Below are positions 1,611 through 14,843 of a stretch of DNA of 16,073 bases, in pieces (the stretch's first letter is position 1; each line of letters begins with the position of its first letter). A model generated the notes under the pieces. That model was not told where the DNA came from, did no database searches, and saw nothing but the letters and a program-made list of their open reading frames with translations. The stretch is taken from IMG/VR virus record IMGVR_UViG_2923307698_000005, one strand, 5' to 3'. The translations under genes and the position numbers were made by a program. The stretch is from a virus. Lineage: Duplodnaviria; Heunggongvirae; Uroviricota; Caudoviricetes.

Positions 1611-1923
1611 GAAATATACAGGCGGATCATCTTTCCAGGGGGAAGCGCACCAATTCATGAGGGGCGTTAATGTCTATATGGGGATCCCCACCTACCGGAA
1701 TTTTTTTCCGGTTAAACGTTAATCAGGCTGGTGGGCTTTACCTGTTCGGTAGGTGTTATGATAATCGTAATACCTTTCCCCCAATGGGGTAAAAGCATCA
1801 ACCGTAACGAAAGTCGTTATGGTTGCCACTGATACCCCAAATTTGGGTATCACGAGTAAGCCCCAAAATCTGGGTGTTACTCTTACTACCCAAACTACGG
1901 GTAGTTTCCGTAGTTTCATGGTC

Positions 1924-1943
1924 GAGTTGCAGATCTGCAACTC
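1924..1943. repeat. Perfect 20-bp palindrome GAGTTGCAGATCTGCAACTC
   Basis: Reverse complement is identical to the forward sequence, centred on AGATCT. Confidence 0.9.
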
Positions 1944-2197
1944 CCCCATTAACCACAGGCGAATTTCCGCCTTCGGTCATTCCTTAATCATCTGCGTAAT
2001 CATAATGATTATTCAGCAAGCGCAATTTTGCGCTTTGCTTAAAGTTCAGCGAGTTACCGCGCCGACTTCCTCAAATTGAGGTTTCCGAAAATATCAGCGG
2101 GTTAGCGATTAAGCTGACCATTAATTAAACTGCGAAAATGTCGTAGTTGTGAGGGGTGTAGCCAACCTATTTTTGGGCCGTCGGGAATATCAACCAG

Positions 2198-2479
2198 TTA
2201 CCGCCGCAACCGCTCCGGCTTCTTCCAGTGGTACGTTATTTTCTCCTTCTCCCGATACATCTCCACGCGGCGACGGTAGGCCAGCAACTCAAGAACTCTG
2301 GTTCGTATGTTGCGCATATCCACGCCATTAAGTTCTATACCATCACGGCGCATCACCTCAGCAACAACACGCGCATAGTTTTCGGCTGTCACGCTGTCCG
2401 GCTGCGTGGCCTGTTCGTCAGCCTGCTGGCTGATTCCGGCAACGCGGCGGATTAATCCCGTTATTTCGGCTTCTGTCAT
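2198..2479 (-). CDS. Hypothetical protein (93 aa), last gene of the packaging operon
   Basis: ATG start at 2479 with GAGG upstream; lies 14 bp downstream of the terL stop on the same strand. Basic C-terminus (HWKKPERLRR). No family recognised. Confidence 0.5.
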   Translation of the reverse strand: MTEAEITGLIRRVAGISQQADEQATQPDSVTAENYARVVAEVMRRDGIELNGVDMRNIRTRVLELLAYRRRVEMYREKEKITYHWKKPERLRR

Positions 2480-2492
2480 GCTGCTGACCTCA

Positions 2493-4154
2493 TTACACCC
2501 CGCTAAATTCTTCCAGTTTCTGGCGGTGGCTGTCGCTTATATCAAAAGCAAAATCCTCATGCTCTGCCTGGAATGTACCAAACGCCATCAGCGCCGCCAC
2601 GCTCGGGTCTATCTTGTTCGGTGATTTTTTCTTGTTCGGCTTGATATTGGCGTTCGCGTCACTCTGCATCACGACGTTACTCATCGACCAGGACAACACC
2701 GGATCGCCACGATGCACAATCACCCTGCGGTTAACAAAAACTTCGAACGATTTCGCCGCCGGACTGAATCTGAGGTAGGTTTGCGGGAACGGCTCCACCT
2801 CAAAACCTGCCCCCTGTAATTGCGTTCTGAGATGCGTGGCGTTCCACGTATCAAAGCCCACCAGCCTGATATTAAATTTCTCCGCGTCCTGCATGATGTC
2901 ATCTCTGATCCGGTCGTAATCAATGCAGTCGCCAGGCGTTGTGCGTATCCAGCCTGCTTTAGCCCACTGACGATAGATGGCGCGGTTTTTATTGGCGGGG
3001 TTCTGTAGCTGAAATTCCGGCAGATAGTGACGGGAAACCAGCATAATGGTTTTACCGACCGGAAAGGCATAGCACACGCTGGAAATATCGCTGGTTGATG
3101 ATAAGTCCAGCCCCGCGTAACACTCCTGGCCGTGTAAATCTTCCTCCGTGAACGTTCCGGCACACTCAGCCCATGCGCCGTTACCCATCCACGGGGTAGC
3201 CCCCTGGCACCAGATATTAAATCGCTTTGTCATCATCTCCACCCACTGCGACGGAATACCCCGCGCTTTCTGGATGGTTGAGGCCAGTTTTTCACGATCG
3301 ACGGAAACATCAATATTAGGGTTCGCCTTTATCCACATCGCCGGATCATCAACCTCGTTTTCGTCGTCCAGTTCGTAAATCAGTACAAAAATTGAATCGT
3401 TAACCTCTTCGCCGTCCAGGATCTGGCAGCAATAATCATAGTGCTGCTTACAGGCTGAAACGACGTTGCTGCCTGATGTGGTAATGGCAAATAACAGCCC
3501 TTCGGGACGTGCGCCCATCCCCAGCTCAAGCGCGGAATAAACGCCGTTATCGGGGTGCAAGTGGTATTCGTCCACGATGGAAAGGCTGGGGTTTGTTCCC
3601 TCGATGGTTGCCGCTTTTGCTGCCAGCGGCTTTAACAGGCTGTTGCTTTTCGGGTGTATCACCTTATGCGCCTGAATATTCACCCGCCTGCGTAACGGTC
3701 GGGATAAAAGGCACATCTGACGCGCATCATCAAAGACGATCCGCGCCTGGTCACGGCTCACCGCTGCGGTGTAGATATCCTGCTGACCGTTCTCCATAAT
3801 CAGAAACCAGTTAGCCAGAATCGCGGCGGTCGTTGATTTCGCATTTTTGCGCGGCACTTCGATAAAGGCGCTCGTATATTTGCGCCGTCCGGTGGCCTTA
3901 ACCTTAAAGCCGAGGATGCACGCAAAGGCGAACTGCTGCCACGGCTCCAGCTCAATGGGTCTGCCACGCATCGGCCCTTTTACGTGCGGGCACACCCTGG
4001 AAAAGGCAATAAACCGATCCACAACCTCACGATCGAACGTGTAAAGGGGGCTTTTAAGGTCCGAAAAGTACCGTTTAACGGCCTGTTTCAGCCGTTTACA
4101 GGCCGGAATTTTGCCCGTTTTTACGTCTTCTGCGTACTTATTCCAGGCGGTCAA
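2493..4154 (-). CDS. Terminase large subunit (553 aa)
   Basis: Translation has an ATPase P-loop-like motif (VPRKNAKST), a Walker B-like SIVDEYH, and a C-terminal nuclease-like region, as in HK97-type TerL. The only in-frame start that keeps the conserved N-terminus is TTG at 4154 with AGGA six nt upstream; it overlaps the terS 3' end by 17 nt. Confidence 0.9.
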   Translation of the reverse strand: MTAWNKYAEDVKTGKIPACKRLKQAVKRYFSDLKSPLYTFDREVVDRFIAFSRVCPHVKGPMRGRPIELEPWQQFAFACILGFKVKATGRRKYTSAFIEVPRKNAKSTTAAILANWFLIMENGQQDIYTAAVSRDQARIVFDDARQMCLLSRPLRRRVNIQAHKVIHPKSNSLLKPLAAKAATIEGTNPSLSIVDEYHLHPDNGVYSALELGMGARPEGLLFAITTSGSNVVSACKQHYDYCCQILDGEEVNDSIFVLIYELDDENEVDDPAMWIKANPNIDVSVDREKLASTIQKARGIPSQWVEMMTKRFNIWCQGATPWMGNGAWAECAGTFTEEDLHGQECYAGLDLSSTSDISSVCYAFPVGKTIMLVSRHYLPEFQLQNPANKNRAIYRQWAKAGWIRTTPGDCIDYDRIRDDIMQDAEKFNIRLVGFDTWNATHLRTQLQGAGFEVEPFPQTYLRFSPAAKSFEVFVNRRVIVHRGDPVLSWSMSNVVMQSDANANIKPNKKKSPNKIDPSVAALMAFGTFQAEHEDFAFDISDSHRQKLEEFSGV

Positions 4155-4494
4155 GCTCGTCCTCTTCTTCTGTTTCCGGTGGATTTTTACGGCGGCTTAT
4201 CGGGTCAAAACCGAGCAAGGAGGCCATTTTTATCATCACTCTTTCCGCGTCGGATTTCGCGCTTAATGCGGGGTTTCTGCTCTCTCCGCCCTGACTGTTA
4301 ACAATGCTGAACCCGCGCGCCGCAAGGTCTGCGACGGCTTTCCGGTATATCGAGTAATTGACGCAATACAGTTCCAGATTGCTCCAGTCGGCGGGAGTCA
4401 GGTCACCCCGTTCCGCAAGCTGCCGCGATTTTTCCCGCCACTGCTTCACGGCGATATCATCCAGGTAGGCGGGGGCTTTCGGTGGTCTTGCCAT
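4138..4494 (-). CDS. Terminase small subunit, P27-like (118 aa)
   Basis: ATG at 4494. Sits directly upstream of and overlapping terL. Translation resembles the P27-family small terminase (DLTPADWSNLELYCVNYSIY) with an acidic C-terminal tail. Confidence 0.8.
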   Translation of the reverse strand: MARPPKAPAYLDDIAVKQWREKSRQLAERGDLTPADWSNLELYCVNYSIYRKAVADLAARGFSIVNSQGGESRNPALSAKSDAERVMIKMASLLGFDPISRRKNPPETEEEDELDRLE

Positions 4495-4539
4495 GCTTAT
4501 TTTTTCGCCAGATTATTTTTCAAAAAATTCCCGTGCATA

Positions 4540-4610
4540 AAAATTTGAGGAGGCGGTCGGTGCCCGGCGGGGTCGGGTTTGTCCTGAAAACGCCCCCCAC
4601 CCCGTCATAC
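4540..4610. other. Candidate cos (cohesive-end) packaging site: GC-rich tract between the HNH gene and terS
   Basis: GGAGGCGGTCGGTGCCCGGCGGGGTCGGGTTTGTCC...CGCCCCCCACCCCGTC, 50-110 bp upstream of the terS start. The HNH-cos-terS arrangement is typical of HK97-like cos phages. Positional inference only. Confidence 0.3.
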
Positions 4611-4783
4611 AGCCTCATCAGCGATTGCGGAAACATTCCATAACCTCGCGGTCACGGTCGGTTAATCGCTTCGCTGTGATGCGTTCTGCGCATCCTGACG
4701 CTTTATCTTTATGCCCTGTTTCCTGTGTCTTCCATGCGTCACGCTGCCTTATAAGTCCACGGATAAGGCGGTTTTGTTCCCGC

Positions 4784-5224
4784 TCATTCATCAGCGTCAT
4801 ACATCCAGTTATTGCGGTTAGCGGCCCGTTCTTCCTCTTCACGAAATCCACCTGCGGCACGCTTACTTTTTGTTGCCGGATCAAGCCATTTCGTTTTCTG
4901 GTTATGGCACGCCTGACACAATGGTTGATGGTTCCATTCGGGCCAGAAGAGAACATCATCACCGCCATTAATCGGGATAATGTGATCCACCACCACGGCG
5001 GGCGTATATATCCCCTTCTCAAGGCATCGCACGCATAACGGGTTTTTACTCAGATACATGGCGCGGTATTTGTCCCACTGTCTGGAGTACCCACGCGCGC
5101 GGCGGTGTCCTCGTCTGGCATCCTCTGCACGCCATGCCGCCCGCCTGTGCTCCTCACACTTGCCGGACTTCACGCGCCTGTTACAGCCTGGTTCTGTGCA
5201 TCGTCTTAATGGTTGCCACGGCAT
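4784..5224 (-). CDS. HNH endonuclease, terminase-associated type (146 aa)
   Basis: Cysteine and histidine zinc-finger-like HNH motifs (CVRCLEKG, VDHIIP, NHQPLCQACHNQKT). Lies between the head-tail connector and terS. Confidence 0.85.
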   Translation of the reverse strand: MPWQPLRRCTEPGCNRRVKSGKCEEHRRAAWRAEDARRGHRRARGYSRQWDKYRAMYLSKNPLCVRCLEKGIYTPAVVVDHIIPINGGDDVLFWPEWNHQPLCQACHNQKTKWLDPATKSKRAAGGFREEEERAANRNNWMYDADE

Positions 5225-5520
5225 CAGTACACCCCCACATCACGGTAAGCCGTCCAGAGTGCACCAATCGTCATGGGTACGCGTGTTTTTGCGTTATCCG
5301 CGACAATCTGGCGATTTTCATACAGGTGAGCGATAAACATCATGCAGCCAATCTTTATGGCTGGCGTGAACTCCAGCCCGTCATCAAAGCGCCTGCCTAT
5401 GTGTATCTGGCACGCCTCAAGCGATGCGGCAATGTATCCGCTGATTAACTGGTCTTCCTCGTCGCCATCGATGCGGCAATGGAGTTTCACTTCTTCCAGG
5501 GTGATAAGTTCTTCTGTCAT
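5224..5520 (-). CDS. Head-tail connector protein, gp6-like (98 aa)
   Basis: Size, position after the head closure gene, and translation consistent with the gp6-like connector family. Its ATG overlaps the upstream stop (ATGA). Confidence 0.65.
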   Translation of the reverse strand: MTEELITLEEVKLHCRIDGDEEDQLISGYIAASLEACQIHIGRRFDDGLEFTPAIKIGCMMFIAHLYENRQIVADNAKTRVPMTIGALWTAYRDVGVY

Positions 5521-5855
5521 TTTTCCGCGCCCTCACGACAAAGAATTTCAAGGCGTGTCCTGGCGGCATCCGGCAGCGGCTGCCCGATGATATTCAGTAC
5601 ACGCCCCGCCAGCGGCCCCGTATTGACCTTTATCCGGCTGGTGGCGTTGATGTCCTTCCTGTAGCGTATCCATACCCTTACCGTTCCAGTCGCCAGTTCT
5701 GCACCCGATGAAATGGCCTCCTTGCTGCTGATCATGTTCACGCTTGCCCAGAGTGTGTGACCGTCCACCCACGTTTCGAGTATTTCGCCCGTCATGGCTC
5801 TGGTCTGTTTCAGGGTCTGAATCGTTACCCTGTCACGCAGTCGCCCTATGTTCAT
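5517..5855 (-). CDS. Head closure / head-tail joining protein (112 aa from the ATG at 5855)
   Basis: Translation MNIGRLRDRVTIQ...VRVWIRYRKDI resembles the phage head-tail joining family. The track ORF starts at 5897, but the ATG at 5855 forms an ATGA overlap with the portal stop and has GAGGGA upstream, so 5855 is preferred. Confidence 0.65.
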   Translation of the reverse strand: MNIGRLRDRVTIQTLKQTRAMTGEILETWVDGHTLWASVNMISSKEAISSGAELATGTVRVWIRYRKDINATSRIKVNTGPLAGRVLNIIGQPLPDAARTRLEILCREGAEK

Positions 5856-7063
5856 TCCGGTTTTTCTCCCTCGCTGATTTTTACTTCCTGTTTCCATGCC
5901 TGGCTGAACTCATCACCACCATCACGCGGTGACAGTCCTTCACGTTCGCGGGCTTCGTTCGGACACATAACGCCGGATTTGATGCCGCGCTCATAGGTGG
6001 CAAAGCGTTCGCCAGGTGTGGCCCGTAACAGGTCCGCGCTGTCAAACTCCACCTGATACCGGATACCAGGTACAGGCGAGGCCACCAGCAGGGCGTTTTT
6101 TATCTGCTGCTCAAAGTTCGCCAGCCACGGGCGCATCGTCATGGTGAGAAATGCGCGGCTTGCCTCGCTGAAATTGCTGTAGGTGCTGTTGCTGTATTCC
6201 TGCAAAAAAATCGGCGAGACGTTGAACATTCTGGCGATGTCTTCAATGGTGAAGCGACGGGAGGCCAGCCATTCAGCATCCTGATTACTCATGCCCAGCT
6301 GCTGATAGCTCATACCCCCTTCAAGGATGGGCGTTTTTCCGGCGTTTCTGGCCCCTTTGTAGCGTTCCAGTGCGGCTAATGCCTGTTTGCCCTTCACGCC
6401 GTCCAGCCATTCGCCTGACGTGATAACCCCTGCCGCCATCATGCCATCACGCATCACGCTCGCGCCGTGGCGTTGTTGGGCCAGCCCAAGCCCCAGCGAT
6501 TCGCGGCAGATGGTTACAGGTGAGCGCCCCATAAAACCGTCATCCGTGGAGTAACGAAGGTGGAGAACCTCCCACGGTAAATAGTTGCGGGTGTTTCCGG
6601 TGTAGGCGTCAGTGATGCAGTAGCGCCAGTTATGCTCACCTGTCTGCTCAACGTTCACCGACTGCGGCGGGTAAGGATGCAAAGCGACCGGAAAACCATC
6701 ACGCCCCCACTGAATCACCGCATAAGCATTACCGTTTAACAGGCAGTGGCGGATCATCATTCGCTTAAACTGGTAGGGGGTTTGCCATGCGTTCGGGCGC
6801 TCGTTGAGGATGTGATCGACCGGATGAGAATCAAGCCACTCGCGGGCCTCCTTCCCCTTCTCATTGCGTACCAGGTACAGGTAACACGGCATGGTAGCCA
6901 CCGCCTCAGAGATGACCGTCACGGCGTTCATGACGGCGGGCAGTGATTCCGCTGTCCCCGATGATACGTACTCACCCGCCCCCGTGTTCGATGTGCCAGC
7001 CAGCGCCATAAACTCATCAAGCGTCATGCTGCGCTGCTCTTTTTTTCTTCTGAAAGGCCACAT
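5852..7063 (-). CDS. Portal protein, HK97 family (403 aa)
   Basis: Size, position and translation consistent with HK97-type portals. ATG at 7063 with GGGGG upstream. Confidence 0.85.
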   Translation of the reverse strand: MWPFRRKKEQRSMTLDEFMALAGTSNTGAGEYVSSGTAESLPAVMNAVTVISEAVATMPCYLYLVRNEKGKEAREWLDSHPVDHILNERPNAWQTPYQFKRMMIRHCLLNGNAYAVIQWGRDGFPVALHPYPPQSVNVEQTGEHNWRYCITDAYTGNTRNYLPWEVLHLRYSTDDGFMGRSPVTICRESLGLGLAQQRHGASVMRDGMMAAGVITSGEWLDGVKGKQALAALERYKGARNAGKTPILEGGMSYQQLGMSNQDAEWLASRRFTIEDIARMFNVSPIFLQEYSNSTYSNFSEASRAFLTMTMRPWLANFEQQIKNALLVASPVPGIRYQVEFDSADLLRATPGERFATYERGIKSGVMCPNEAREREGLSPRDGGDEFSQAWKQEVKISEGEKPE

Positions 7064-7064
7064 A

Positions 7065-7637
7065 TCACACCCCCGCTAAATCCGCCCACCAGCGGCGATT
7101 ATCCGCACGCGGCATTTTTTCGGGGTGCTGCTCATACAGGGAACGGCGGGCCAGCTCCACGTCGGAATCAGGGTAAGCCGGTACGGATGTAACGGTAATT
7201 TCGTACAGTTCCGCCACCAGCACGGTGCGCACGCATGGATCTGTTGTGGTATCCCATACATCCTTACGGGAACGAAAGCCAAAGCTCATGCCGGATATAT
7301 CACCTCGTTTAACCAGTTCGATAACGTCGCGCCCTGTACTGGTATCCGGTGGGGTCAGTTCAAAGCGTAACCCTGTTTCGTCCTCTTCCAGTTTCAGCGT
7401 GCCGGAACGGGTGCGCCCCAGTAACATGCTGTGGTCATGCTCATACAGGCCGCGAACGTCATTACCCGCCGCAAGCCATTCAGTAAACGCCCCCCGCTGG
7501 AATTTTTCGTAAAACTCACCCCATAACAGTTCTGAAAGCTTATCCCAGCGAACAATGTAGCCCGTCAGCGTACCGGCTCCGCTGGTGGTGATTTCCGATG
7601 ACCGGATTTCCATACTCTTCATAATTTTTTCACCCAT
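7065..7637 (-). CDS. Prohead maturation protease, HK97 family (190 aa)
   Basis: Lies between the capsid and portal genes; translation consistent with HK97 prohead protease. Start is ambiguous between ATGs at 7637, 7622 and 7613. Confidence 0.8.
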   Translation of the reverse strand: MGEKIMKSMEIRSSEITTSGAGTLTGYIVRWDKLSELLWGEFYEKFQRGAFTEWLAAGNDVRGLYEHDHSMLLGRTRSGTLKLEEDETGLRFELTPPDTSTGRDVIELVKRGDISGMSFGFRSRKDVWDTTTDPCVRTVLVAELYEITVTSVPAYPDSDVELARRSLYEQHPEKMPRADNRRWWADLAGV

Positions 7638-7646
7638 AAAACACTA

Positions 7647-7666
7647 AAGGGGCTTTTAAGCCCCTT
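7647..7666 (-). promoter_or_regulatory. Intergenic stem-loop between the capsid and protease genes (AAGGGGCTT/AAGCCCCTT)
   Basis: Perfect inverted repeat in the 39-bp gap after the capsid stop, followed on the minus strand by UUAGUGUUUU. Consistent with a partial terminator or mRNA-stabilising hairpin that raises capsid expression relative to downstream genes. Confidence 0.35.
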
Positions 7667-7676
7667 CTGTATGCTA

Positions 7677-8834
7677 TTAATCGTCGTCCTGTGGCAGTTC
7701 CAGAATCTTGATCGCGTTCGAATCCACCACGCCACCGCCTAAATATTTCTGCGCGAAAATTTTGATGAAGCCCGGCTCTGTGAGGTTGTCCGGTCTGGTG
7801 CGAACACCTGTTTCGTGATCAACAATGTAGTAACCGCGTTTGAAGTCACCCAGGGCAATAACGTTATCCGGCATAAACTCCAGATATTCGACCGGAAGGC
7901 CCAGCAACGTATCAGGATCACCCGCCTGTAAACGGTCACGCCAGATGTAATCACCGTTCGCGTTCTTCACCTTCTGGAGTTTTGCCGCCGTCGTGGAGTT
8001 AACCACCCAGACCGCGTTTTTGCGGTATTTTTTACGTAATGCAAATTTCAGGTCGATCAGCGGGTCCGCAGATGTCCACGCCAGAGATTCGGAAGGTTTA
8101 ATTACCTGCAACGTACCAAAATCACGCTCTTTGTCGTTCTTCTCTGCACGGGGTACGGATAGAAAGCCTTTTGCTTTTTTGTCACCGTCGCCCACAACCA
8201 GATCGCTTTCTTCGGTTTCCGTGAAGGTGTCGCCAATCTCGCCCGTCAGCCATGAAAGGATGTCCACATCGGAAAAATCCACGATTTCCTGCGTGGTGCG
8301 CGGGTACGCATAGACCGGATACAGCTTAATGCTCACCTCGTTAATCTGCGGGGTGCTGGTCTGTTCGCGTGCCTTACCCTCTTCACCGTGGTTAACGGTC
8401 GCACCGCCAGCGGAAACAAGCTGCTTAAACTCGTTGCTGCTGATTTTCTTCACGGTACAGATGCGGCGCATGGTGGATTCATCCGTCAGCATTCGCATGA
8501 TTTCGGTGTTCAGTTCGGGGATAACGGTATAACCACCATCAGCGGGAACGCCTGTACTTAATGCGCGGGTTTCACCTGTCAGAATGTAGTGACGTAGTTC
8601 GGCGGGGTCAGTGGTCTGGCTGTTTTTGCCTGGTTTACTGCGCTCTTCGTCAGCAACGGCCTCAAGGCGGGAGATGTCTTTATCGAGGGATTCAGCTTTA
8701 GCGCGTAATTCGTCAAATTTTGCGCCCTCAGCATCGTTAAGGCTGCGGTTTTCTTTTTCCGCGTTCTCCAGCATGTCGCGCATCTGATTTTTAATGGCGG
8801 TTTTCTGCTGGCGTAATTCGATTATTCTCGGCAT
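7677..8834 (-). CDS. Major capsid protein, HK97 fold, with N-terminal delta (scaffold) domain (385 aa from the ATG at 8834)
   Basis: N-terminal coiled-coil-like region (IIELRQQKTAIKNQMRDMLENAEKENRSLNDAEGAKFDELRAKAESLDKDISRLEAV) followed by a capsid body. The track ORF extends to a GTG at 8882 with no ribosome-binding site; the ATG at 8834 has AGGA upstream. Confidence 0.85.
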   Translation of the reverse strand: MPRIIELRQQKTAIKNQMRDMLENAEKENRSLNDAEGAKFDELRAKAESLDKDISRLEAVADEERSKPGKNSQTTDPAELRHYILTGETRALSTGVPADGGYTVIPELNTEIMRMLTDESTMRRICTVKKISSNEFKQLVSAGGATVNHGEEGKAREQTSTPQINEVSIKLYPVYAYPRTTQEIVDFSDVDILSWLTGEIGDTFTETEESDLVVGDGDKKAKGFLSVPRAEKNDKERDFGTLQVIKPSESLAWTSADPLIDLKFALRKKYRKNAVWVVNSTTAAKLQKVKNANGDYIWRDRLQAGDPDTLLGLPVEYLEFMPDNVIALGDFKRGYYIVDHETGVRTRPDNLTEPGFIKIFAQKYLGGGVVDSNAIKILELPQDDD

Positions 8835-9044
8835 AAAAAAAGTCCTGAAGTTAAGTAAGGAACTCCAGGACGCGGCAAACACTCAACCGTTTTTCATAAG
8901 GAAATCAGCAATCGCACCGATCGTTTTCCCGCCTGGTAATGAATATTGGCGGGCACATTAACAGGCGGGAAAGTGGCCCCAGCGTCCTGGCACCACGGGC
9001 GAGAATAATCATGATTCAGTTCGGGTAAAATATGCCGATCCGGT

Positions 9045-9080
9045 CAGCGAACAACGTGGAACAACCACGAACAAATAATT
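9045..9080 (+). repeat. Site B: 10-bp-phased GAACAA direct repeats (gcGAACAAC gtgGAACAAC cacGAACAAA) upstream of the capsid operon
   Basis: Read directly. Lies just downstream (minus sense) of the terminator at 9090-9116 and about 200 bp upstream of the capsid start. A candidate promoter (TTGTTC, 16 nt, TATTTT on the minus strand) sits next to it. Confidence 0.4.
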
Positions 9081-9089
9081 TACAAAACA

Positions 9090-9116
9090 TGACAAAAAGC
9101 CGGATTGCTCCGGCTG
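9090..9116 (-). terminator. Rho-independent terminator ending the replication/early operon
   Basis: 7-bp stem AGCCGGA/TCCGGCT with loop TTGC, followed on the minus strand by UUUUUGUCAUGUUUUG. Starts 6 bp after the PerC-like stop. Confidence 0.55.
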
Positions 9117-9121
9117 TGTGA

Positions 9122-9394
9122 TTATCTGTCCTGGTAATTTCGCCATATTTCATCACCAGCACCATCCATACCCATTTCGGCATAAGTGCGATCGACCGCC
9201 TTTTTCAGGTCTCCGTAATTATCCGGCGGCTCCGGTGGCCTCTGTGCCTTCCTGGAACATTCCAGCCGTCGCATCGTGATGTGATGCCGTTCCTTGTCTG
9301 TCTCCACCAGTTGCATGACTTCACCCCATCGCGCCGACGCTCTCCGGTAAAAGCCTTTCGCCTCCAGTTCTTCCGCTATGCGGTCATGTACCAT
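9122..9394 (-). CDS. PerC-family transcriptional regulator-like protein (90 aa from the ATG at 9394)
   Basis: Translation MVHDRIAEELEAKGFYRRASARWGEVM...TDKER...RR..CSR matches my recollection of the PerC/Pch signature. The track start at 9403 is a GTG; the ATG at 9394 is preferred. Confidence 0.55.
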   Translation of the reverse strand: MVHDRIAEELEAKGFYRRASARWGEVMQLVETDKERHHITMRRLECSRKAQRPPEPPDNYGDLKKAVDRTYAEMGMDGAGDEIWRNYQDR

Positions 9395-9406
9395 CGTCCC
9401 CACCCC

Positions 9407-9817
9407 TCAGAACGGAATATCATCACCGTAAGGGTCATCGCCTCCCGCTGGTGGCTGATTACCCTGTGTGCCTGTGGTCTTGCGTCGGCTCCCACCAGGA
9501 CGTGCCGCACGGGCACTGATTACGCTGTCTGCAATAACCTGATAACCCTGCCGCGTTTCCCCGTTCTGTCCGGTCCACTGGCTGACCTGCATCGTGCCGG
9601 ATACGCTGGCAACGTCGCCTTTTTGATGTTTAGCCAGGAAGTCGGCCTGCTTACCAAATGCGATGACCGATAGCCATAACGTCGCCTGTCCATCCTGTGC
9701 CTGGCTGCATGGCAGCGATACCGCCATACGCGCCAGCGTCATCGGTGTACCCTTGCTGGTCTGTTTTACCTGCGGGTCGTCCACCAGCCGCCAGTAAGCT
9801 GCAATTTGTGCTGTCAT
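9407..9817 (-). CDS. Single-stranded DNA-binding protein (136 aa)
   Basis: OB-fold-like core (WLSVIAFGKQADFLAKHQKGDVASVSGTMQVSQWTGQNGETRQGYQV), a glycine/proline/glutamine-rich linker, and a C-terminal DDIPF tail as in bacterial SSB. GAGGTGG ribosome-binding site. Confidence 0.75.
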   Translation of the reverse strand: MTAQIAAYWRLVDDPQVKQTSKGTPMTLARMAVSLPCSQAQDGQATLWLSVIAFGKQADFLAKHQKGDVASVSGTMQVSQWTGQNGETRQGYQVIADSVISARAARPGGSRRKTTGTQGNQPPAGGDDPYGDDIPF

Positions 9818-9826
9818 ATTGCCACC

Positions 9827-10132
9827 TCAGTGAAGCGATCCGGCGTTGTTCTTTTTCATCTCTTCCATCATTTTTTCAGTGAGCATTACGCACTGAAAAC
9901 CCATGTTTTTGATGTCTACGGGCTTCATGCCTTTATCAGTGGATATCACAGGCAGAATATCCTGATACACATCGCGGTCAGGGTAACTAAGCACACAAAG
10001 CGCCCATGATGCCACGGGTGAGGATCCTTCGTCTGTTTCAACCCACCAGCCTGGTGTAGCTGCGCTTATTTGCTGAATCGTGATCCGTCCGTTGTGCTTG
10101 TAAAGTTTTTCACCAAATTTTGGTTCGCTCAT
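9827..10132 (-). CDS. Hypothetical protein (101 aa)
   Basis: ATG with GGAG upstream; ATGA overlap with the upstream gene's stop. No family recognised. Confidence 0.5.
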   Translation of the reverse strand: MSEPKFGEKLYKHNGRITIQQISAATPGWWVETDEGSSPVASWALCVLSYPDRDVYQDILPVISTDKGMKPVDIKNMGFQCVMLTEKMMEEMKKNNAGSLH

Positions 10133-10380
10133 GATTCCAACTCTCCGGTTTTAACGTTGATGGTTGTTACCTGTTCCGCTTCGGCAATCTCCCGTTCTGT
10201 CAGCGTGGCAAAGTTTGCCGCCGCCGTGGTCATGAATGCGCTTATCAGGTCGGGATGTTCCTTCGCGTATCCTTCCCGCGTGTGGCGGTCTATCGTTCTG
10301 ATTGCCACCTTTAAGGTGTGCTCAGTCATGTCTAACGCTTTATATTTTGGCTCTGTTCTGTCTCTGCGTTTTTGGGTCAT
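10129..10380 (-). CDS. Hypothetical protein (83 aa from the ATG at 10380)
   Basis: The track ORF extends to a GTG at 10410 that lies inside the iteron array; the ATG at 10380 is preferred. No family recognised. Confidence 0.45.
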   Translation of the reverse strand: MTQKRRDRTEPKYKALDMTEHTLKVAIRTIDRHTREGYAKEHPDLISAFMTTAAANFATLTEREIAEAEQVTTINVKTGELES

Positions 10381-10384
10381 TTCT

Positions 10385-10585
10385 CGCAACCTCTCACTTT
10401 TTCGCCTCACTTTTTCAAGCGTCTCACTTCGTCGCAGTTGGGATTTTTGGTTTTTCTATGTGTGTGTTTCATAAGTATTTTTTTACCCCTCACTTTTGAG
10501 GATGTATACAGGTCGAAAAGTGAGGGGGAGCGGGCTAATTTTGGCCCTCTTTCTATCCCCCTCGCTTTTGCTCCTCACTTTTATA
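10385..10585. repeat. Iteron-type replication origin: seven copies of CTCACTTTT (one inverted, one CTCGCTTTT variant) flanking an AT-rich spacer
   Basis: Copies at 10393-10401, 10406-10415, 10423-10430, 10489-10497, 10517-10525 (inverted), 10561-10569 (variant) and 10574-10582. The AT-rich core is 10441-10485. Lies immediately 3' of the replication ATPase gene. Confidence 0.6.
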
Positions 10586-11981
10586 GCGGCGCTACATCAT
10601 CCCCATCGATACGAATAACCCCATCTTTTTCCAGCTTGTACAGCCAGCGCCGGAAGTTTTTCATTTCATACCCCAGCTTTTTCATGTCATCACGTAACAT
10701 CTGGATCGTGCACTTGTCGCCGTTCTGTGTGCGTGAACGGATGCACCCCCATAGCGCGGTATGGTTTTCCGTCTTGTTCCCTGCCTCCTCGATGCGCTCC
10801 AGTTCAACAGGAGGGCGCGGATCATCCACCACCACCAGCGACGTGATTAATTCACCGTCAGCGTCGGTAAAAAGCTCCACCACGCGTAAGTCATATGCGG
10901 CTTCTTTGAGTTCCTCCGCGTCCTTCATTTTGGTGCATGAGATAACCAGCGCTTCGCTTCCTGCGTCCTCCCTGCGTATCCGGTATTCAGCATCCAGCGA
11001 AGCACGAAATGCACTGGAACCGCGCGCGCCTTTCGTCTCATCCTTGCCGGAATGGTGAACCACCAGCACCGTGGCCCCTGTGCGTCGTTTCAGTTCGTCA
11101 CAACCACGGATAAACGCCCCCATATCACGGGAATCATTTTCATCATTCCCACCAAAGCAACGCGCCAGCGTATCCAGAATAATCATGCGTACAGGTTTAC
11201 CCGTTTCCCGCTCCACCTGACGGGCAGCGATAACCATTTCATCAACATCAAGCGGGGCAGCCGGAAAGATGGGGCGGTTTACCAGATACAGATTTTTCAC
11301 CTGCTCATCGTGCACAACCTCCCAGGCTTTTACACGACGCGGAACACCTATACCGCCTTCACCAACCACATAGAGAACCGCACCATGTGCAACCCTGCGG
11401 CCTCCCCACTGGCGACCAGTGGCAACATGGCACGCCCACGATCCGGCAAGGAATGATTTATAGGACCCGCTAGCCCCGTATATGCTGCATAGCGATACCG
11501 CCGGAATAATCCCCTTAACCACGTAATCCAGTTGCGTGTCGTATCCGGTAGATCCAACGCTCATCGGTAGCGTGGTTTTTCGCTGGTGGTTTTTTTCTTC
11601 CGCCGGCTCTTTCCCGCGCACCCGTTCCAGGTATTCGCGCCAGTTCTCCCGCATATGGCTGTGCATCCCTTCGGGGTAATAATTCGCATCAGTTACACCC
11701 GCCGCCGCCAGCTTGTGCGCAATGGCATTAATATTTGATGGCCTGATGTGGCCTGCCTTGTACAGCCGGACACAATAGCGCCCCTCGTCGATGATTCTCA
11801 GGTCTGCCAGTTCATCCAGTTGATCATCAGCCAGCACAACGGGAGGCACATTATCGCCAGCCAGTCGCCCGTCCTGTTCCTGCCACTGTTTCGCATGTGC
11901 CCAGGCATCACTACCCGCAAAAATAATGACTTCGGTCATCTTGTCGTAAGGCTGTTTTTTTAAGTTCGGTGCGCTTTTCAT
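10581..11981 (-). CDS. Replication protein: RecA-fold (RepA/DnaB-like) ATPase, probable helicase or primase-helicase of the satellite (466 aa)
   Basis: Walker A GASGSYKS and Walker B-like MIILDT in a RecA-like core. Sits between the accessory ORFs and the iteron origin, as the pri-rep gene does in PICI and P4-like elements. Confidence 0.75.
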   Translation of the reverse strand: MKSAPNLKKQPYDKMTEVIIFAGSDAWAHAKQWQEQDGRLAGDNVPPVVLADDQLDELADLRIIDEGRYCVRLYKAGHIRPSNINAIAHKLAAAGVTDANYYPEGMHSHMRENWREYLERVRGKEPAEEKNHQRKTTLPMSVGSTGYDTQLDYVVKGIIPAVSLCSIYGASGSYKSFLAGSWACHVATGRQWGGRRVAHGAVLYVVGEGGIGVPRRVKAWEVVHDEQVKNLYLVNRPIFPAAPLDVDEMVIAARQVERETGKPVRMIILDTLARCFGGNDENDSRDMGAFIRGCDELKRRTGATVLVVHHSGKDETKGARGSSAFRASLDAEYRIRREDAGSEALVISCTKMKDAEELKEAAYDLRVVELFTDADGELITSLVVVDDPRPPVELERIEEAGNKTENHTALWGCIRSRTQNGDKCTIQMLRDDMKKLGYEMKNFRRWLYKLEKDGVIRIDGDDVAPL

Positions 11982-12277
11982 TTCTTGCCCCTGAATCCGT
12001 TAACCATGGTTTTCAGCTTCTGGATGTTTGCCCGTGCCCTGGCGTTGCTGGTGGGCACGTTATGCGGCGCGGTCTGTACCAGAGAAAAATCACGCCGGAA
12101 CTGATAAACAGGCATCACGCAATCATATTCGTAACCTTCACGGCGGTAGGTTACGCGCCGTTCTTCCACGCCCTTAATCATTACCGTGCCGCCGTACTGG
12201 TCGCGGTAAATATCACCGCGCGTAAATTTAGGGTGAGTGTTGCCACTGGCAGTTAAGCCAGAATATTTAAGTTTCAT
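11978..12277 (-). CDS. Hypothetical protein (99 aa)
   Basis: ATG with GGAGA upstream; its stop overlaps the replication gene start (ATGA). No family recognised. Confidence 0.5.
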   Translation of the reverse strand: MKLKYSGLTASGNTHPKFTRGDIYRDQYGGTVMIKGVEERRVTYRREGYEYDCVMPVYQFRRDFSLVQTAPHNVPTSNARARANIQKLKTMVNGFRGKK

Positions 12278-12282
12278 TATTT

Positions 12283-12516
12283 TTATTCTCCGGTGTGCTG
12301 TTCTTTATATCTGTCGTGCAATAGATCTATTTCTTGCAGTTCCATTATTACAGGCTCAAGAAGCGTTATTAATGCCGTGACAATTCTTGATTTTTGTTTG
12401 TCGCGTTCATTGTCGCCAAGTGTTTCAAGACATATGCGCAATATTTCGTACATACCTTCAGCGTAAGCAAGGGCACTAAATGCGCGGTCTATTGTTTGGT
12501 GGTAAATATCACGCAT
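12283..12516 (-). CDS. Hypothetical protein (77 aa)
   Basis: ATG with GAGGA upstream; coupled to neighbours. No family recognised. Confidence 0.5.
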   Translation of the reverse strand: MRDIYHQTIDRAFSALAYAEGMYEILRICLETLGDNERDKQKSRIVTALITLLEPVIMELQEIDLLHDRYKEQHTGE

Positions 12517-12973
12517 GGCTTACATCCTCAGGAAATTTTCTTCTATAACGCGCCTCTGCCACATATTCCGCATAATCGGCGGCGATATTCAGTACATCAA
12601 GCCCCGTTGATTTATATTCTCTCGTGGAAAGTAAGAAAAAAGCCGCTCTAATAAGTTCTGGCATTGACGAAAGCGCATCAGCCGCATCATCAGGAACGCC
12701 GGAAAATTCCTGTTTCAGGGAATTAAAACGATCATCACGCATAACCCCCCCATTTTCACAATCAGCAATCAGGATAGCTTTGGCCTCATTCAGCGCCGTA
12801 TCAGCACTAAATTGCATGACAGCCAGTGAGTGAGGAACGAAAGCACCGGCATATTCTGTTTCGCTGGTGGCGTGCTTATGTTCCCTGTCCGCGATAACAG
12901 AAATATCAATCAGCGCGTGCATCAGCGTTTTGATGGCTTCGGCGGCTGCGTCCGGTGTGGTTTTATTGTGCAT
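12509..12973 (-). CDS. Hypothetical protein (154 aa)
   Basis: ATG with AGGGGA upstream; overlaps the downstream gene start by 8 nt. No family recognised. Confidence 0.5.
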   Translation of the reverse strand: MHNKTTPDAAAEAIKTLMHALIDISVIADREHKHATSETEYAGAFVPHSLAVMQFSADTALNEAKAILIADCENGGVMRDDRFNSLKQEFSGVPDDAADALSSMPELIRAAFFLLSTREYKSTGLDVLNIAADYAEYVAEARYRRKFPEDVSHA

Positions 12974-13175
12974 AAAGCATCCCCTGAATATTCGTGTTAA
13001 TCATTCCGGCACGTTTTGTGATTTCCTGTAATGATTCCCTTGTGGCGACAATTGCTTCATCTGGTAAGTGGTAATTACACACCACGCGACCTTTATCCAC
13101 ATTGACCAGTAGCTGCCCTGTGAATTTCTCACGAAACTGAATGCGGTTAAGGTCAGTAAGTGACAGATTAATCAT
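12963..13175 (-). CDS. Hypothetical protein (70 aa from the ATG at 13175)
   Basis: AGGAGG six nt upstream of the ATG at 13175; the start overlaps the upstream stop (ATGATTAA). The track's longer ORF to 13217 has no ribosome-binding site. Confidence 0.45.
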   Translation of the reverse strand: MINLSLTDLNRIQFREKFTGQLLVNVDKGRVVCNYHLPDEAIVATRESLQEITKRAGMINTNIQGMLYAQ

Positions 13176-13365
13176 GGCGCACCTCCTGACGAATACGGGC
13201 GGCAAATACAGCAACACAACCGGACGGGCAACGGTTACGCGCTTCGCGTTCCGTCCAGGCGGTTACGTGGATGATTTGAGATTCTCCGGCACTCAGTGCC
13301 AGAAAACGCCACACAAAGGCCGTTTGTGTGTGTACAAGGTGTGGTATATGATTTACGGCAACCAT
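13168..13365 (-). CDS. Hypothetical protein (65 aa from the ATG at 13365), first gene of the minus-strand early operon
   Basis: AGGAG five nt upstream of the ATG at 13365. The track's extension to 13467 would run through operator palindromes and a hairpin. Confidence 0.4.
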   Translation of the reverse strand: MVAVNHIPHLVHTQTAFVWRFLALSAGESQIIHVTAWTEREARNRCPSGCVAVFAARIRQEVRHD

Positions 13366-13445
13366 AACGGCTCCTAGTTTACGTTGTTGGTTAGAAGCCC
13401 CGTTACTGCTCCTACAGTGCGGGGCTTTGCTTTTTGTGTTGATTG

Positions 13446-13491
13446 TGTGTAATGTGTCATTACACATAAATACATTACATGAGGTGTAATT
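13446..13491. promoter_or_regulatory. Paired operator-like inverted repeats in the divergent control region: TGTGTAATG-TGT-CATTACACA (13446-13466) and CATTACA-N5-GTGTAAT (13473-13491)
   Basis: Read directly. Four copies of the TGTAATG/CATTACA half-site between the minus-strand early operon and the plus-strand Arc-like gene, overlapping the Arc-like gene's ribosome-binding site. Confidence 0.45.
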
Positions 13492-13494
13492 AAC

Positions 13495-13674
13495 GTGTCA
13501 ATACACAAAAACGAAAGGCGTGGTAATCCTCCGTTCCAGTTCCGTTTAGATCCTGACTTACGGGAAAAGATGGAAAAGGCACAACAACAGGACGGCGATG
13601 ATTCTCTTGCTGCCTGGATAAAGCGAATAATCCGCAAAGAATTACAGCAACGCGGCATAGAACCCAAAGGATAA
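13495..13674 (+). CDS. Arc-family ribbon-helix-helix DNA-binding protein (59 aa, GTG start)
   Basis: Not in the ORF track (under 60 aa). GTG at 13495 with GAGG ten nt upstream. Translation VSIHKNERRGNPPFQFRLDPDLREKMEKAQQQDGDDSLAAWIKRIIRKELQQRGIEPKG matches the Arc-type pattern: a PPxFxLRL beta-strand followed by two helices. Confidence 0.6.
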   Translation: MSIHKNERRGNPPFQFRLDPDLREKMEKAQQQDGDDSLAAWIKRIIRKELQQRGIEPKG

Positions 13675-13731
13675 AAACTATCAGCGCCGTGGTGTGAGGA
13701 ACTACGGCGCATTTCTTTACAGGAGTAGACA

Positions 13732-13917
13732 ATGAACAACGAAGAATTACGGGAAATCGCATTATCCATACTTGAAAGACAGGTAGAAAAAAAATTAAGA
13801 GAAATGGATGAAATGCCTGACCATGAACAGGAAGCAAGGCCAAAAAGATTTGCCCTTGAGGATTTTCTTAAAAATTGCCCAAGAAAGATGAGATCGTGGC
13901 GTTGTTGTCCGCCCTGA
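13732..13917 (+). CDS. Hypothetical small protein (61 aa), cotranscribed with the Arc-like gene
   Basis: ATG with AGGAG six nt upstream; charged, helical-looking translation; followed by an intrinsic terminator. Confidence 0.5.
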   Translation: MNNEELREIALSILERQVEKKLREMDEMPDHEQEARPKRFALEDFLKNCPRKMRSWRCCPP

Positions 13918-14800: not shown

Positions 14801-14843
14801 TTCGCATATCCAGTATGCGCATACTGAAAAAACACGAAAAAAA

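Follow-up and report, generated by a model that had tools for sequence, protein, structure and literature searches.

Background

Capsid-forming PICIs (cf-PICIs) are recently recognised and intensively studied phage satellites which have so far been described by their genes only. The papers on them (Alqurainy et al., bioRxiv 10.1101/2022.09.08.507074; He et al., 10.1101/2025.02.11.637232) cover genes only, and the non-coding right end, the cassette described below and the position of cos are unmentioned in both. A search of the literature for literal sequence gave no match.

An element was classed as a cf-PICI on the basis of int, alpA and pri/rep genes, its own capsid, protease, portal, connector and HNH-TerS-TerL genes, no tail or lysis genes, a length of about 10-15 kb and a dedicated att site. 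The DNA analysed here, a stretch of 16,073 nucleotides referred to as the window, has these features, as judged from the RefSeq annotation of the near-identical elements L001 and L002, Pfam, the junctions and the empty site; it is an EcCIEDL933-like cf-PICI integrated between phoQ and roxA. The gene order in L001 and L002 is int-alpA-rep-SSB-PerC-capsid-protease-portal-connectors-HNH-TerS-TerL-orf93. Among the genes of the element TerS and HNH gave Pfam matches, including Terminase_4, and TerL is 81% identical to the TerL of LR881103, a virion-derived linear genome of 16.5 kb. EcCIEDL933 and the cf-PICIs are like the window in gene order and content, in the absence of tail and lysis genes and in a size of about 15 kb. 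The non-coding tail of the EcCIEDL933-like elements in O157:H7 genomes is 98.6% identical to that of the window, although the insertion site is different, being tqsA in the O157 strains examined and phoQ/roxA here.

The non-coding right end

The stretch rich in palindromes belongs to the 728-bp tail of the cf-PICI, which is free of genes and has orf93 on one side and the att junction on the other. It belongs to the satellite and is not host intergenic DNA: it is missing from the K-12 empty site, and its DNA recurs in other genomes, at tqsA, clpS/cspD, fis, hpt and thiM and inside a prophage capsid gene. The first-pass annotation had put the array at the chromosome-satellite junction; the junction is in fact at 1462-1470, about 220 bp to the left.

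The dense array of inverted repeats described in that annotation was confirmed. A repeat search gave 29 inverted pairs within 1462-2200, including 1785-1810/1814-1839, 1830-1840/1842-1852, 1833-1865/1871-1903, 1885-1898/1901-1914 and 1892-1900/1908-1916, and the perfect 20-bp palindrome GAGTTGCAGATCTGCAACTC is present at 1924-1943. The CCCAA..TTGGG theme is found in CCCCAATGGGG (1779-1789), ACCCCAAATTTGGGT (1834-1848), CCCCAAAATCTGGG (1861-1874) and ACCCAAACTACGGGT (1888-1902), and the pattern ACCC-N7-GGGT occurs three times in the window compared to 0.2 expected. The density is far above chance. The RNA fold of 1680-1960 has a z score of -8.86 on the + strand and -6.93 on the - strand, and none of 200 shuffled sequences equalled it; among 226 sliding windows of 280 nt its GC-corrected residual ranks first on the + strand and among the top three on the - strand. 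One sequence quoted in the annotation, CCGGTAGG, is absent, the actual sequence being TTCGGTAGGTG.

Recombination has made the right end a mosaic in which breakpoints are numerous and relic iterons occur, and it consists of three independently inherited modules (A, B and C, counted from the att side), each made of short hairpins. The gene-free tail of a cf-PICI is organised, and not junk.

The att site, module A, cos and the replication origin

The att core was located, as had been proposed, by comparison of junctions and an empty site, namely the left junction, the right junction of L001 (..TAAATTATGTCC, continuing across the junction into ATACTTC) and the K-12 empty site (..TAAATATGCCCATAC..). 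It lies outside the stretch 1690-1945 singled out by the annotation. The features from the end of phoQ to the edge of module B are as follows.

1461: end of phoQ.
1462-1469: ATATGTCC, a block of identity resembling an att core, at the junction on the phoQ side; satellite DNA begins at about 1470.
1470-1827: module A, the att-proximal non-coding block, comprising the P'-arm side of attP and a conserved distal part.
1489-1501, - strand: IHF-consensus match AATCAATGGCTTG, 20 bp from the att core.
1543-1607, + strand: putative integrase arm-type repeats, ACTACACC twice and then ACAACGTGGAACAA, as a direct repeat.
1680-1689: palindrome GGGGATCCCC, its pairs retained in 20-22 of 25 variants.
1689-1755: nested inverted repeat with outer arms CACCTACCG (1689-1697) and CGGTAGGTG (1747-1755).
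1695-1700 and 1706-1711: inner hairpin of the nested repeat, CCGGAA/TTCCGG.
1727-1734, + strand: Chi site GCTGGTGG, the exact octamer, inside the conserved block of module A.
1779-1789: small hairpin CCCC-AAT-GGGG, CCCCAATGGGG, partly retained across variants.
1800-1824: 11-bp hairpin AACCGTAACGA-AAG-TCGTTATGGTT, followed on the - strand by GATGCTTTTAC.

Module A can be aligned with many loci at 70-98% identity whichever modules B and C accompany it, and homology breaks precisely at 1826/1827, the border with module B. Like the attP arms of tyrosine-integrase elements of the lambda and P4 type, it has arm repeats which recur on the int side and an IHF site 20 bp from the core. The recurring block of about 58 bp is found beside int at the far end of L001 (31342-31399, 83% identity) and L002 (30856-30914, 78% identity), and the IHF consensus WATCARNNNNTTR is matched six times in the window, compared to 1.07 expected. 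Unlike attP arms, the flagged hairpins only begin about 220 bp from the core, and module B is optional and sits at a variable distance from the core, from 360 to more than 1000 bp. The proposal that 1690-1945 is the recombination region of the element was not borne out, as the core, the IHF-like site and the arm repeats are all further left, module B keeps its distance to the last late gene and not to att, and sister elements at the phoQ site do without it. A role for module B as an intasome arm was rejected on similar grounds, the shared repeats being those at 1543-1607.

The long-range pairing reported within module A has real arms, at 1689-1697 and 1747-1755, but the pairing itself is not conserved: 9 of 25 variants break five of the nine outer pairs, and compensatory changes, for which a search had been proposed, were found in none of them. 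Each of the five pairs of CCCAC (1687-1691) with GTGGG (1731-1735) is retained in 22-25 of the 25 variants, and the block 1693-1745 is almost invariant. The hairpin at 1800-1824 occurs with four loops (AAG, TGT, TGA and AAA), its stem being retained with a constant G.T at 1804/1820.

The Chi octamer occurs 16 times in the window compared to 0.6 expected, and all 16 copies are within the satellite. The density in PICIs is 0.7-1.2 per kb, against 0.1-0.4 per kb in the host flanks; these satellites are about five-fold enriched in Chi. If RecBCD enters at the cos end on the terS side, the site at 1727-1734 would be the first Chi that it meets in the correct orientation. It is an exact match to the RecBCD recombination hotspot, but accounts for only 8 bp of the finding.

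Both ends of the linear genome LR881103 align at about 4578-4600, between the HNH and terS genes, and cos is placed there. The right end resembles the lambda cos flank (TTTTCCGGTT, ATAATCATTAT) no more than expected by chance (E >= 0.15), and the right ends contain no lambda-type cosN. The element's own AAAGTGAGG iterons are found only beside rep, at 10385-10582 (iterons 10392-10581), which excluded the right end as replication origin; a near-match at 2073-2081 is isolated, and GCGGGTTA occurs once in the window, as a relic.

Module B

The core of the finding is a cassette of 123 bp, with the following parts.

1826-1948: module B, a conserved four-hairpin cassette ending in the 20-bp palindrome.
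1828-1979: insertion/deletion unit of 152 bp, consisting of module B and the hairpin AGGCG-AATTTC-CGCCT (1957-1972).
1830-1852: hairpin c, TGATACCC/GGGTATCA, with a 7-nt loop whose sequence varies freely.
1854-1882: hairpin d, GAGTAA..CCCA/TGGG..TTACTC, seen in minimum-free-energy folds.
1885-1905: hairpin e, ACTACCC/GGGTAGT, mutually exclusive with hairpin f.
1892-1916: hairpin f, AAACTACGG/CCGTAGTTT, mutually exclusive with hairpin e.
1924-1943: perfect 20-bp palindrome GAGTTGCAGATCTGCAACTC, with a central GATC.

The 152-bp unit was defined by alignment with elements which lack module B at the same att site (L031, L051, L067, L005 and L075). The region of hairpins e and f (1885-1916) contains a 9-nt direct repeat, GTAGTTTC(C), and a variant with a 9-nt deletion in this region is found in L109, L157 and the L156 type. 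Exact copies of the palindrome are present in 68 IMG/VR loci; variants have ..GCAAATCTGC.. or ..GCAAATTTGCAATTC, and in L110 the palindrome sub-module is joined to a different left part.

Taken alone, module B has fold z scores of -7.2 (+) and -6.9 (-), ie it is more stable than shuffled sequence on both strands. The L156 type, which is 76% identical, still forms four hairpins on the + strand, with z scores of -4.4 (+) and -1.8 (-), the + strand fold being maintained through G.U pairs. A consensus scan found no promoter-like or terminator-like sites inside module B. Intrinsic (Rho-independent) termination was rejected, there being no GC-rich stem with a U-tract; the tails after the hairpins hold at most 3-4 T. 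A dispersed repeat of the REP, ERIC or MITE kind was also rejected, as the cassette has a median of one copy per genome, is found in PICI right ends and shows no target duplication at 1828/1979.

The annotation had further suggested a cluster of operators for a dimeric regulator, and this was weakened by the L156 type. There dyads 2 and 3 have AGTG and CTGT in place of their GGGT halves while the left halves, CCCCAAAATC and ACCCAAACTAC, are invariant, so dyad symmetry itself is not the conserved feature. In an operator array the half-sites should be conserved together, and they are not.

Module C and the end of the late operon

Beyond the insertion/deletion unit the right end continues to orf93.

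About 1980-2197: module C, an array of repeat units of variable copy number.
2092-2104 and 2188-2200: IHF-consensus matches in or at module C.
2195-2212, - strand: terminator-like hairpin at the orf93 stop codon, the sole terminator-like site in 1400-2600.
2198-2479, - strand: orf93, the last gene of the late (capsid/packaging) operon (phrog_1561, E = 3e-56).

Each unit of module C is built from a short palindrome with an AT centre and, after it, the motif ..ATATCA(R)CNRGTTA, which resembles the IHF consensus; the array was recognised from direct repeats, an inverted pair and multiple offset matches within single loci. No Pfam family was found for orf93. It is annotated as a hypothetical protein and follows terL in L001, L002 and L004, and a TerS-like gene in L003.

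Occurrence and conservation of module B

Module B was found in 705 of 5426 complete E. coli genomes (about 13%, or one in eight), with a median of one copy and a maximum of six. Every copy whose surroundings were examined is in the right end of a PICI, and the cassette is common to cf-PICIs and classical, EcCICFT073-type PICIs. All 170 copies with an orf93 homologue nearby lie 45-786 bp past it in a single orientation. In L117 and L226, which have no orf93, the cassette follows by about 60 bp a 181-aa ORF which occupies the position of the TerS-like gene. This position holds regardless of replication module, packaging module, att site and cargo, and DNA that varies among elements, be it Abi cargo, a second ori cassette, Chi clusters or module A, is always on the att side of module B. 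Module B keeps a tight distance to the last late gene and not to the att core, which is anywhere between about 360 bp and over 1000 bp away, cargo genes lying in the interval. At least three types of replication module, each with its own iterons, and two packaging types are represented among the carriers, and their integrases form one clade (77-90% identical). The cassette is nevertheless optional: sister elements at the same phoQ site lack it, and orf93 also occurs without it.

The 36 distinct copies, taken from different flanks, have a mean column identity of 93%. Mean divergence is 4.6% for the module B core, compared to 13% for orf93 and 21% for the third codon positions of orf93, ie the cassette diverges three to five times less than the adjacent gene. 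The two divergences are correlated (r = 0.55), which argues against a simple recent spread. No fewer than six different left flanks and four right flanks are found around the cassette, which is therefore older than many exchanges. Module B is a cassette without a described function which is constrained more tightly than the neighbouring gene. Scans of viral and metagenome sequence for wider diversity gave only minor variants and the one 76% clade, and a scan of genome contigs gave one locus; pattern matches with other spacings in metagenomes were unrelated to module B.

Covariation and searches for known RNAs

Hairpin c is the only helix with compensatory changes. The pair 1830/1852 is C-G in 27 copies and U-A in 5, the pair 1834/1848 is A-U in 31 and C-G in 1, and there is one more compensated copy, L246. 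Double changes were seen in 2 of 33-35 pairs, both in helix c. The covariation score is reached by only 1-5 of 500 shuffles, but the copies are too alike, at 93% mean column identity. The other helices of module B are either invariant or simply broken. Hairpin d is uncompensated: 12 of 36 copies break its terminal pair, and in the L156 type the hairpin has shifted to another register. Outside helix c, broken and wobble pairs are equally common, neither kind favours one strand consistently, and among the variants listed the z scores of the main type show no strand preference. The covariation is too thin to prove an RNA fold.

No part of the window matched Rfam 15 at the gathering threshold, and a permissive search of 1400-2300 gave noise only (E = 2.8-7). 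Searches for tRNA and tmRNA were negative. No 10-mer of module B occurs elsewhere in the element, and there was no significant match in phage genomes which could indicate a complementary partner. Known sRNAs of EHEC were considered and rejected, Esr41 because it is located on SpLE1, and the lambdoid Pas sRNAs because they are present in phage genomes while module B has no phage match. Published sRNA maps of strain Sakai miss the tqsA insertion site, since tqsA is intact in Sakai. The structured non-coding RNA suggested in the annotation is still a possible reading, although the absence of an Rfam match and of a promoter or terminator in module B, with compensation in one helix, leaves it unproven.

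Discussion

The reading which we prefer, tentatively, is that module B is a structured element which marks the boundary where the late operon ends. Together with the neighbouring hairpins it would act in cis at the level of the nucleic acid. The 3' untranslated end of the late transcript, and also antisense transcripts coming from host or cargo genes, would carry a stable stack of stem-loops which could make transcription stop or stall, or shield the 3' end of the RNA; the late operon would in this way be insulated from the variable cargo and att side. The adjoining Chi may shield linear or rolling-circle DNA from RecBCD. The absence of promoter and terminator signals in module B fits a read-through element better than a separate gene. 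Against a pure 3'-end stabiliser or terminator are the near-invariant loops and linkers, which such a role would not need; helices d to g are conserved in their very sequence, as if a specific partner recognised them.

Like REP/BIME sequences, intrinsic or bidirectional terminators and 3'-UTR stabilisers, the array is a run of stable hairpins situated directly behind a long operon, where transcription units converge, and like BIME and RIP elements it is flanked by IHF-like sites. It differs in being single-copy and satellite-specific and not genome-wide, in having no U-tracts and in conserving loops and linkers, for which REPs and terminators have no need. As counterpoints to a boundary role, there is already a terminator-like hairpin at the orf93 stop (2195-2212), module B has no proper U-tract, same-site sisters dispense with it, and covariation is confined to one helix. 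If module B does control the end of the late operon, or meets a helper or host factor, it would give a new handle on the timing and insulation of packaging genes, and on the swapping of cargo beside it. Even if it is inert, a practical map of the att core, arm sites, cos, ori and cargo boundary is available for this family of elements.

The possibility that module B is an undescribed, satellite-specific functional element we regard as rather unlikely. In this reading a factor of the helper phage or host would recognise, by its sequence, a structured RNA or single-stranded DNA in folded form. It would be an optional add-on, used by PICIs of differing packaging and replication types to manipulate the helper or host, and it may be a decoy, a regulator acting in trans, or a signal at which helper-modified RNA polymerase terminates or antiterminates.

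A separate sRNA gene, or an sRNA processed from the 3'-UTR, which acts in trans on host or helper transcripts or proteins and whose target or partner dictates the near-invariant sequence, is likewise possible but unlikely. The sequence of module B is conserved more strongly than the adjacent gene and its fold is very stable, in the L156 type significantly so on the + strand only, through the G.U pairs. By eye, the operon strand of the L003, L110 and L156 types shows a sigma-54-like -24/-12 motif, CTGGTGGGTGAGTTGCA, directly adjoining the palindrome, and in the L003 type the cassette is followed by a GC hairpin and TTACTTATT. The window type, however, does not have that motif and the L105 type has it at the wrong spacing; in the window no site resembling a sigma-70 promoter or a terminator is found in or beside module B, and the flanks which would have to supply promoter and terminator differ among contexts. 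The strand signals conflict, Rfam gave no match even at E <= 10, and there is no complementary partner in the element or in phage genomes. It is established that P4-type satellites use structured immunity RNAs, and homologues of CI/seqA have been reported in the 'Bro' zones of PICIs (PMC10111431). The CI RNA of P4 and the C4 RNAs of P1 and P7 are structured RNAs of satellites and phages in the same broad group; in contrast to them, module B and the regulatory region are at opposite ends of the element, no Rfam C4 match is found anywhere in the window, and the element has no partner like seqA or seqC.

It is less probable that module B is functionless, either a scar of recombination or a hitch-hiker spread recently among E. 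coli PICIs by homologous exchange in a recombination-prone, Chi-rich region. It is optional and confined to close relatives (minor variants and the 76% clade), and it lies in a mosaic right end with breakpoints, relic iterons and a high density of Chi. A scar would not be expected to sit in at least six left and four right flanks and yet diverge three to five times less than the co-inherited orf93, nor to have a strictly fixed position and orientation, nor to compensate the stem of hairpin c while its loop drifts.

Lower still we rate a platform of double-stranded DNA, in which the dyads and the CCCAAA/ACTAC repeats, spaced by about 27 bp, would bind a protein and build a nucleoprotein complex. 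The protein could come from the host, the helper or the PICI, and examples are the arm-binding domain of Int, AlpA, IHF, Fis and orf93 itself. In its favour, the loops are conserved along with the rest of the primary sequence, three ACCC..GGGT dyads recur every 27 bp beside the perfect palindrome, and the palindrome centre changes symmetrically from GATC to AATT in the L156 type; the ACTAC motifs also resemble the arm-type repeat ACTACACC, the integrases belong to one clade, and IHF-consensus sites flank the region. On the other hand, two dyads in the L156 type keep their left halves without the right ones. A distance to the core of 360 to more than 1000 bp with cargo between is unfit for an intasome, and the cassette spans at least three replication-module types and two packaging types, with module B and orf93 each occurring alone.

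A small protein is improbable. Two ORFs cross the region, 1819-2079 (+, 86 aa) and 1719-1949 (-, 76 aa), and neither is supported as a gene, in agreement with the earlier statement that no coding gene explains it. The + strand ORF reads MRNDISSTDT..LGIASKPQNLGVTLTTQTTGSFRSFxVELQICNS.. in other contexts; none of the three sequence types closes its frame within module B, the 9-nt indel does not shift it, the three changes in the L156 palindrome are synonymous, and PGAP or other callers annotate it occasionally. But start, stop and both termini differ among contexts, three frames are open at once, and the antisense frame is equally synonymous. Variable columns fall 14:7:15 by codon position (p = 0.2), with no excess at the third, and module B is more conserved than the non-synonymous positions of orf93. 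There are only 20 sparse protein clusters although the DNA is in 13% of genomes, and no Pfam or PHROG family was matched. A KilA-N relic was considered as well, as the 20-mer, which encodes ELQICNS, is also present in a KilA-N gene of L095; it was rejected, the ORFs of module B giving no Pfam signal even at E <= 10.

Module B is not the att core, cos, the ori or an operator array for a dimeric repressor, and a role of the region as att core, cos or origin, to which its place near the junction, the short likeness to the lambda cos flank and the right-end iteron cassettes bracketed by module B copies in other PICIs might point, is very improbable with att at 1462-1607, cos at about 4578-4600, the iterons at 10385-10582 and same-att elements that lack module B. 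The two-site ori/crr layout of P4 is not reproduced in the window, which has no second cluster of its own iterons, and module B is iteron-free and accompanies three replication-module types. A layout more like that of P4 is seen in L101, L113, L091 and L130, whose right end contains, at a long distance from the ori beside rep, another cluster of iterons (GCGGGTTA) around an AT-rich core.

Right end of the satellite

The genes of the satellite, in the order orf93, TerL, TerS, HNH, connectors, portal, protease, major capsid protein, PerC, SSB, Rep helicase, DUF4222, Icd-like, AlpA-type HTH and integrase, are those of the capsid-forming PICIs (cf-PICIs), of which EcCIEDL933 is the prototype (bioRxiv 10.1101/2022.09.08.507074, 10.1101/2025.02.11.637232). 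E. coli STEC299 has an annotated copy of this element at the phoQ/roxA site too, and O157:H7 strains have one within tqsA.

1-1461, 3' part of phoQ
~1470 to window end, phage satellite, all genes on the - strand
2198-2479 (-), orf93, the last late-operon gene
2493-4154 (-), TerL
14844-16073 (-), integrase

The att core was located by comparing the left junction with the right junction of the related locus L001 and with the empty site of K-12. The identity block ATATGTCC occupies 1462-1469 and the satellite starts at about 1470. An IHF-consensus site lies at 1489-1501. After it comes a 58-bp block (1543-1607) with two ACTACACC repeats, and the block is found again next to int at the far end of the element. 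These repeats are likely to be arm-type sites, and the part next to att resembles an ordinary attP arm in its behaviour. The palindrome-rich stretch that the first-pass annotation placed at the chromosome-satellite junction, as a possible recombination region, starts about 220 bp inside the junction, and a role as recombination region is not supported.

BLAST against 85 orf93-anchored loci resolved the 728-bp non-coding tail into a mosaic of three blocks, present or absent independently; exactly 1828-1979 is missing from phoQ-site sister elements.

1470-1827, module A
1826-1948, module B
~1980-2197, module C

Module C is a series of repeat units, varying in number from element to element, in each of which an AT-centred palindrome precedes an IHF-consensus-like motif. 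In one phoQ-site sister element (L071, 3280-3460) orf93 and the att core are only about 180 bp apart. The core is joined directly to a module C unit and there are no arm-type repeats; the element is probably an immobilised deletion derivative. The right ends of four other loci (L067, L005, L075 and L065) have clusters of GTCAC-type repeats (TGTCACGG, TGTCACTGG, TTGTCACTC, CCGTCACG) beside AT-rich DNA, in what looks like a further iteron-like relic in the same slot.

Inverted repeats and folding

All the inverted repeats first listed are present, including the perfect 20-bp palindrome at 1924-1943. The long-range pairing also exists, with one arm slightly misquoted; the true arms are CACCTACCG (1689-1697) and CGGTAGGTG (1747-1755). 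The predicted fold of 1680-1960 scored z = -8.9 (+ strand) and -6.9 (- strand), and no shuffle equalled either. Among 226 overlapping 280-nt windows its GC-corrected folding energy was the most extreme on the + strand and in the top three on the - strand. The original observation was confirmed, its interpretation in part only. The regions next in structuredness are 13231-13580 (+), the Icd-like/regulatory region, and 8751-9170 (-), upstream of the capsid gene; neither has a match in Rfam.

Within module A, 1693-1745 is almost invariant and holds a CCGGAA/TTCCGG hairpin and a Chi site (1727-1734). In 9 of 25 variants the 1689/1747 long-range pairing is disrupted, with no compensating change; for an alternative, CCCAC/GTGGG (1687-1691/1731-1735), each pair persists in 22-25 of the 25. 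The hairpin at 1800-1824 maintains its stem across four different loops.

Module B folds into four hairpins.

1830-1852, hairpin c
1854-1882, hairpin d
1885-1916, hairpin e or f
1924-1943, hairpin g

Compensatory changes were found at two pairs of hairpin c, whose loop varies freely, and not in the remaining helices, which are nearly invariant or broken; in these, changes are few, and disrupted pairs are about as common as wobbles on either strand. Scans of viral and metagenome data turned up no more than minor variants, too similar to take covariation any further. A diverged B type folds significantly on the + strand only (z = -4.4 versus -1.8), via G.U pairs, which hints at the + strand. Translated on either strand in the same frame, the palindrome gives ELQICNS. 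Probably by coincidence, an identical 20-mer occurs in an unrelated AT-rich prophage, inside a KilA-N domain gene (..VTELQICNSPEE..; L095, 5335-6108), and in Pasteurella phage Pmp14 (13262-13281).

Occurrence and constraint of module B

We regard module B as a non-coding part of a mobile element that is both structured and conserved. Of 5426 complete E. coli genomes 705 have it, usually as one copy, and it is not a dispersed repeat. Its carriers are cf-PICIs and EcCICFT073-like PICIs with only capsid, decoration and TerS-like genes. Between them they occupy seven different insertion sites and have three types of replication module, the iterons of which differ (AAAGTGAGG, GCGGGTTA or TGTTCACC), yet their integrases form one clade, 77-90% identical. 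Wherever a recognisable orf93 is nearby (170 of 170 copies), B is located 45-786 bp past its stop (median 243), in a single orientation; where orf93 is lacking, B follows by about 60 bp a 181-aa ORF in the position of the TerS-like gene. The variable DNA (Abi cargo gene, second origin-like cassette, Chi clusters or module A) is all on the att side of B. L156 (NZ_CP116074.1 3504619-3522727), a helper-embedded PICI within the major capsid gene of a lambdoid prophage, has a TIR-domain gene near int and an Abi-family gene between att and B, which marks the att-side DNA as a cargo (defence) slot.

The mean column identity over 36 distinct copies is 93%. Across 1485 locus pairs the mean divergence was 4.6% for the B core, 13% for adjacent orf93 and 21% for orf93 third codon positions. 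Since B diverges less than orf93 and is missing from some elements, it is optional, yet constrained where present. We found no mention of it in the papers compared on cf-PICIs and E. coli PICIs.

Possible roles of module B

Tentatively, the most likely reading is that B and its neighbouring hairpins are a cis-acting boundary of the late operon, because B is tied to the end of that operon and not to att, rep, cos or cargo, and because it has a fixed orientation, lacks expression signals of its own and lies between convergent transcription units. The late transcript would end in a stable stack of stem-loops, which incoming antisense transcripts would carry as well; the stack would limit read-through or protect the RNA end, and the nearby Chi site would serve DNA protection. 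In position and form B resembles the REP/BIME stem-loop arrays of operon ends, but it is single-copy, satellite-specific and sequence-constrained. The main weakness of the boundary role is that it leaves the conserved loops and linkers unexplained. These point to a specific partner, and so keep alive a small RNA, which is unlikely, and a DNA platform, which is very unlikely. That B is a neutral hitch-hiker is quite unlikely, its low divergence being hard to reconcile with such an origin.

The covariance-model search matched B to no known RNA family, a scan of B found no canonical terminator or promoter, and the P4 CI and P1 C4 immunity RNAs are unrelated. The suggested cluster of operators for a dimeric regulator is probably wrong: two of the three dyads in the 76%-identical variant have only one half left, and that half is invariant. 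Nor is B probably a gene. A + strand frame stays open in every variant, but its start and end are different in each context, gene callers seldom pick it up, it has no family match and substitutions show no third-position excess.

A sigma-54-like -24/-12 motif (CTGGTGGGTGAGTTGCA or CTGGTAGTCGAATTGCA) abuts the palindrome on the operon strand in three related loci (L003 ~14124-14140, L110 5455-5475, L156 ~9110-9126). It overlaps Chi in the L003 and L110 types and a 7-of-8 near-match, GCTGGTAG, in the L156 type; the window's version lacks the motif, and a third flank type has it with the wrong spacing.

Chi sites, cos and origins

The satellite has 16 Chi sites (GCTGGTGG; 7 on +, 9 on -; 1727-15189) against 0.6 expected from shuffles, and the phoQ part of the window none. 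Related PICIs have 0.7-1.2 per kb versus 0.1-0.4 per kb in host flanks (L001, L002, L003, L004, L156), and 7.9 kb of lambdoid late genes have none. The excess suggests protection of linear or rolling-circle DNA from RecBCD. The Chi site of module A and one within terL share an 18-nt extended context, ATCAGGCTGGTGGGCTTT (1722-1739 and 2853-2870), in inverted orientation.

The 16.5-kb linear genome of vB_KppS-Ant (LR881103), from induced particles, encodes a TerL 81% identical and starts 22 bp before terS, its first gene. Its end, GGGGTGGGGGAGGTTTTCAGGAC, aligns to the window at ~4578-4600, between the small ORF after HNH and terS, where GGGGTGGGGGGCGTTTTCAGGAC (-) matches the last 23 nt of LR881103. 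By this alignment ~4578-4600 (-) is the probable cf-PICI cos site, a position not given in the cf-PICI literature compared. Module B was rejected as cos on this ground, its similarities to lambda cos being at chance level. It was also rejected as the origin, which is at 10385-10582, just downstream of the Rep helicase gene, where six or seven AAAGTGAGG iterons, some in each orientation, surround an AT-rich core.

In four loci (L101 940-1500, L113 9550-10090, L091 and L130) a second origin-like cassette lies between two direct copies of B that are about 434 bp apart. It consists of three GCGGGTTA iterons, then AT-rich DNA, then three iterons in inverted orientation. The DUF927-type Rep origin (L002 24606-24912) has GCGGGTTA as its iteron, and the layout recalls the two-site ori/crr arrangement of P4.
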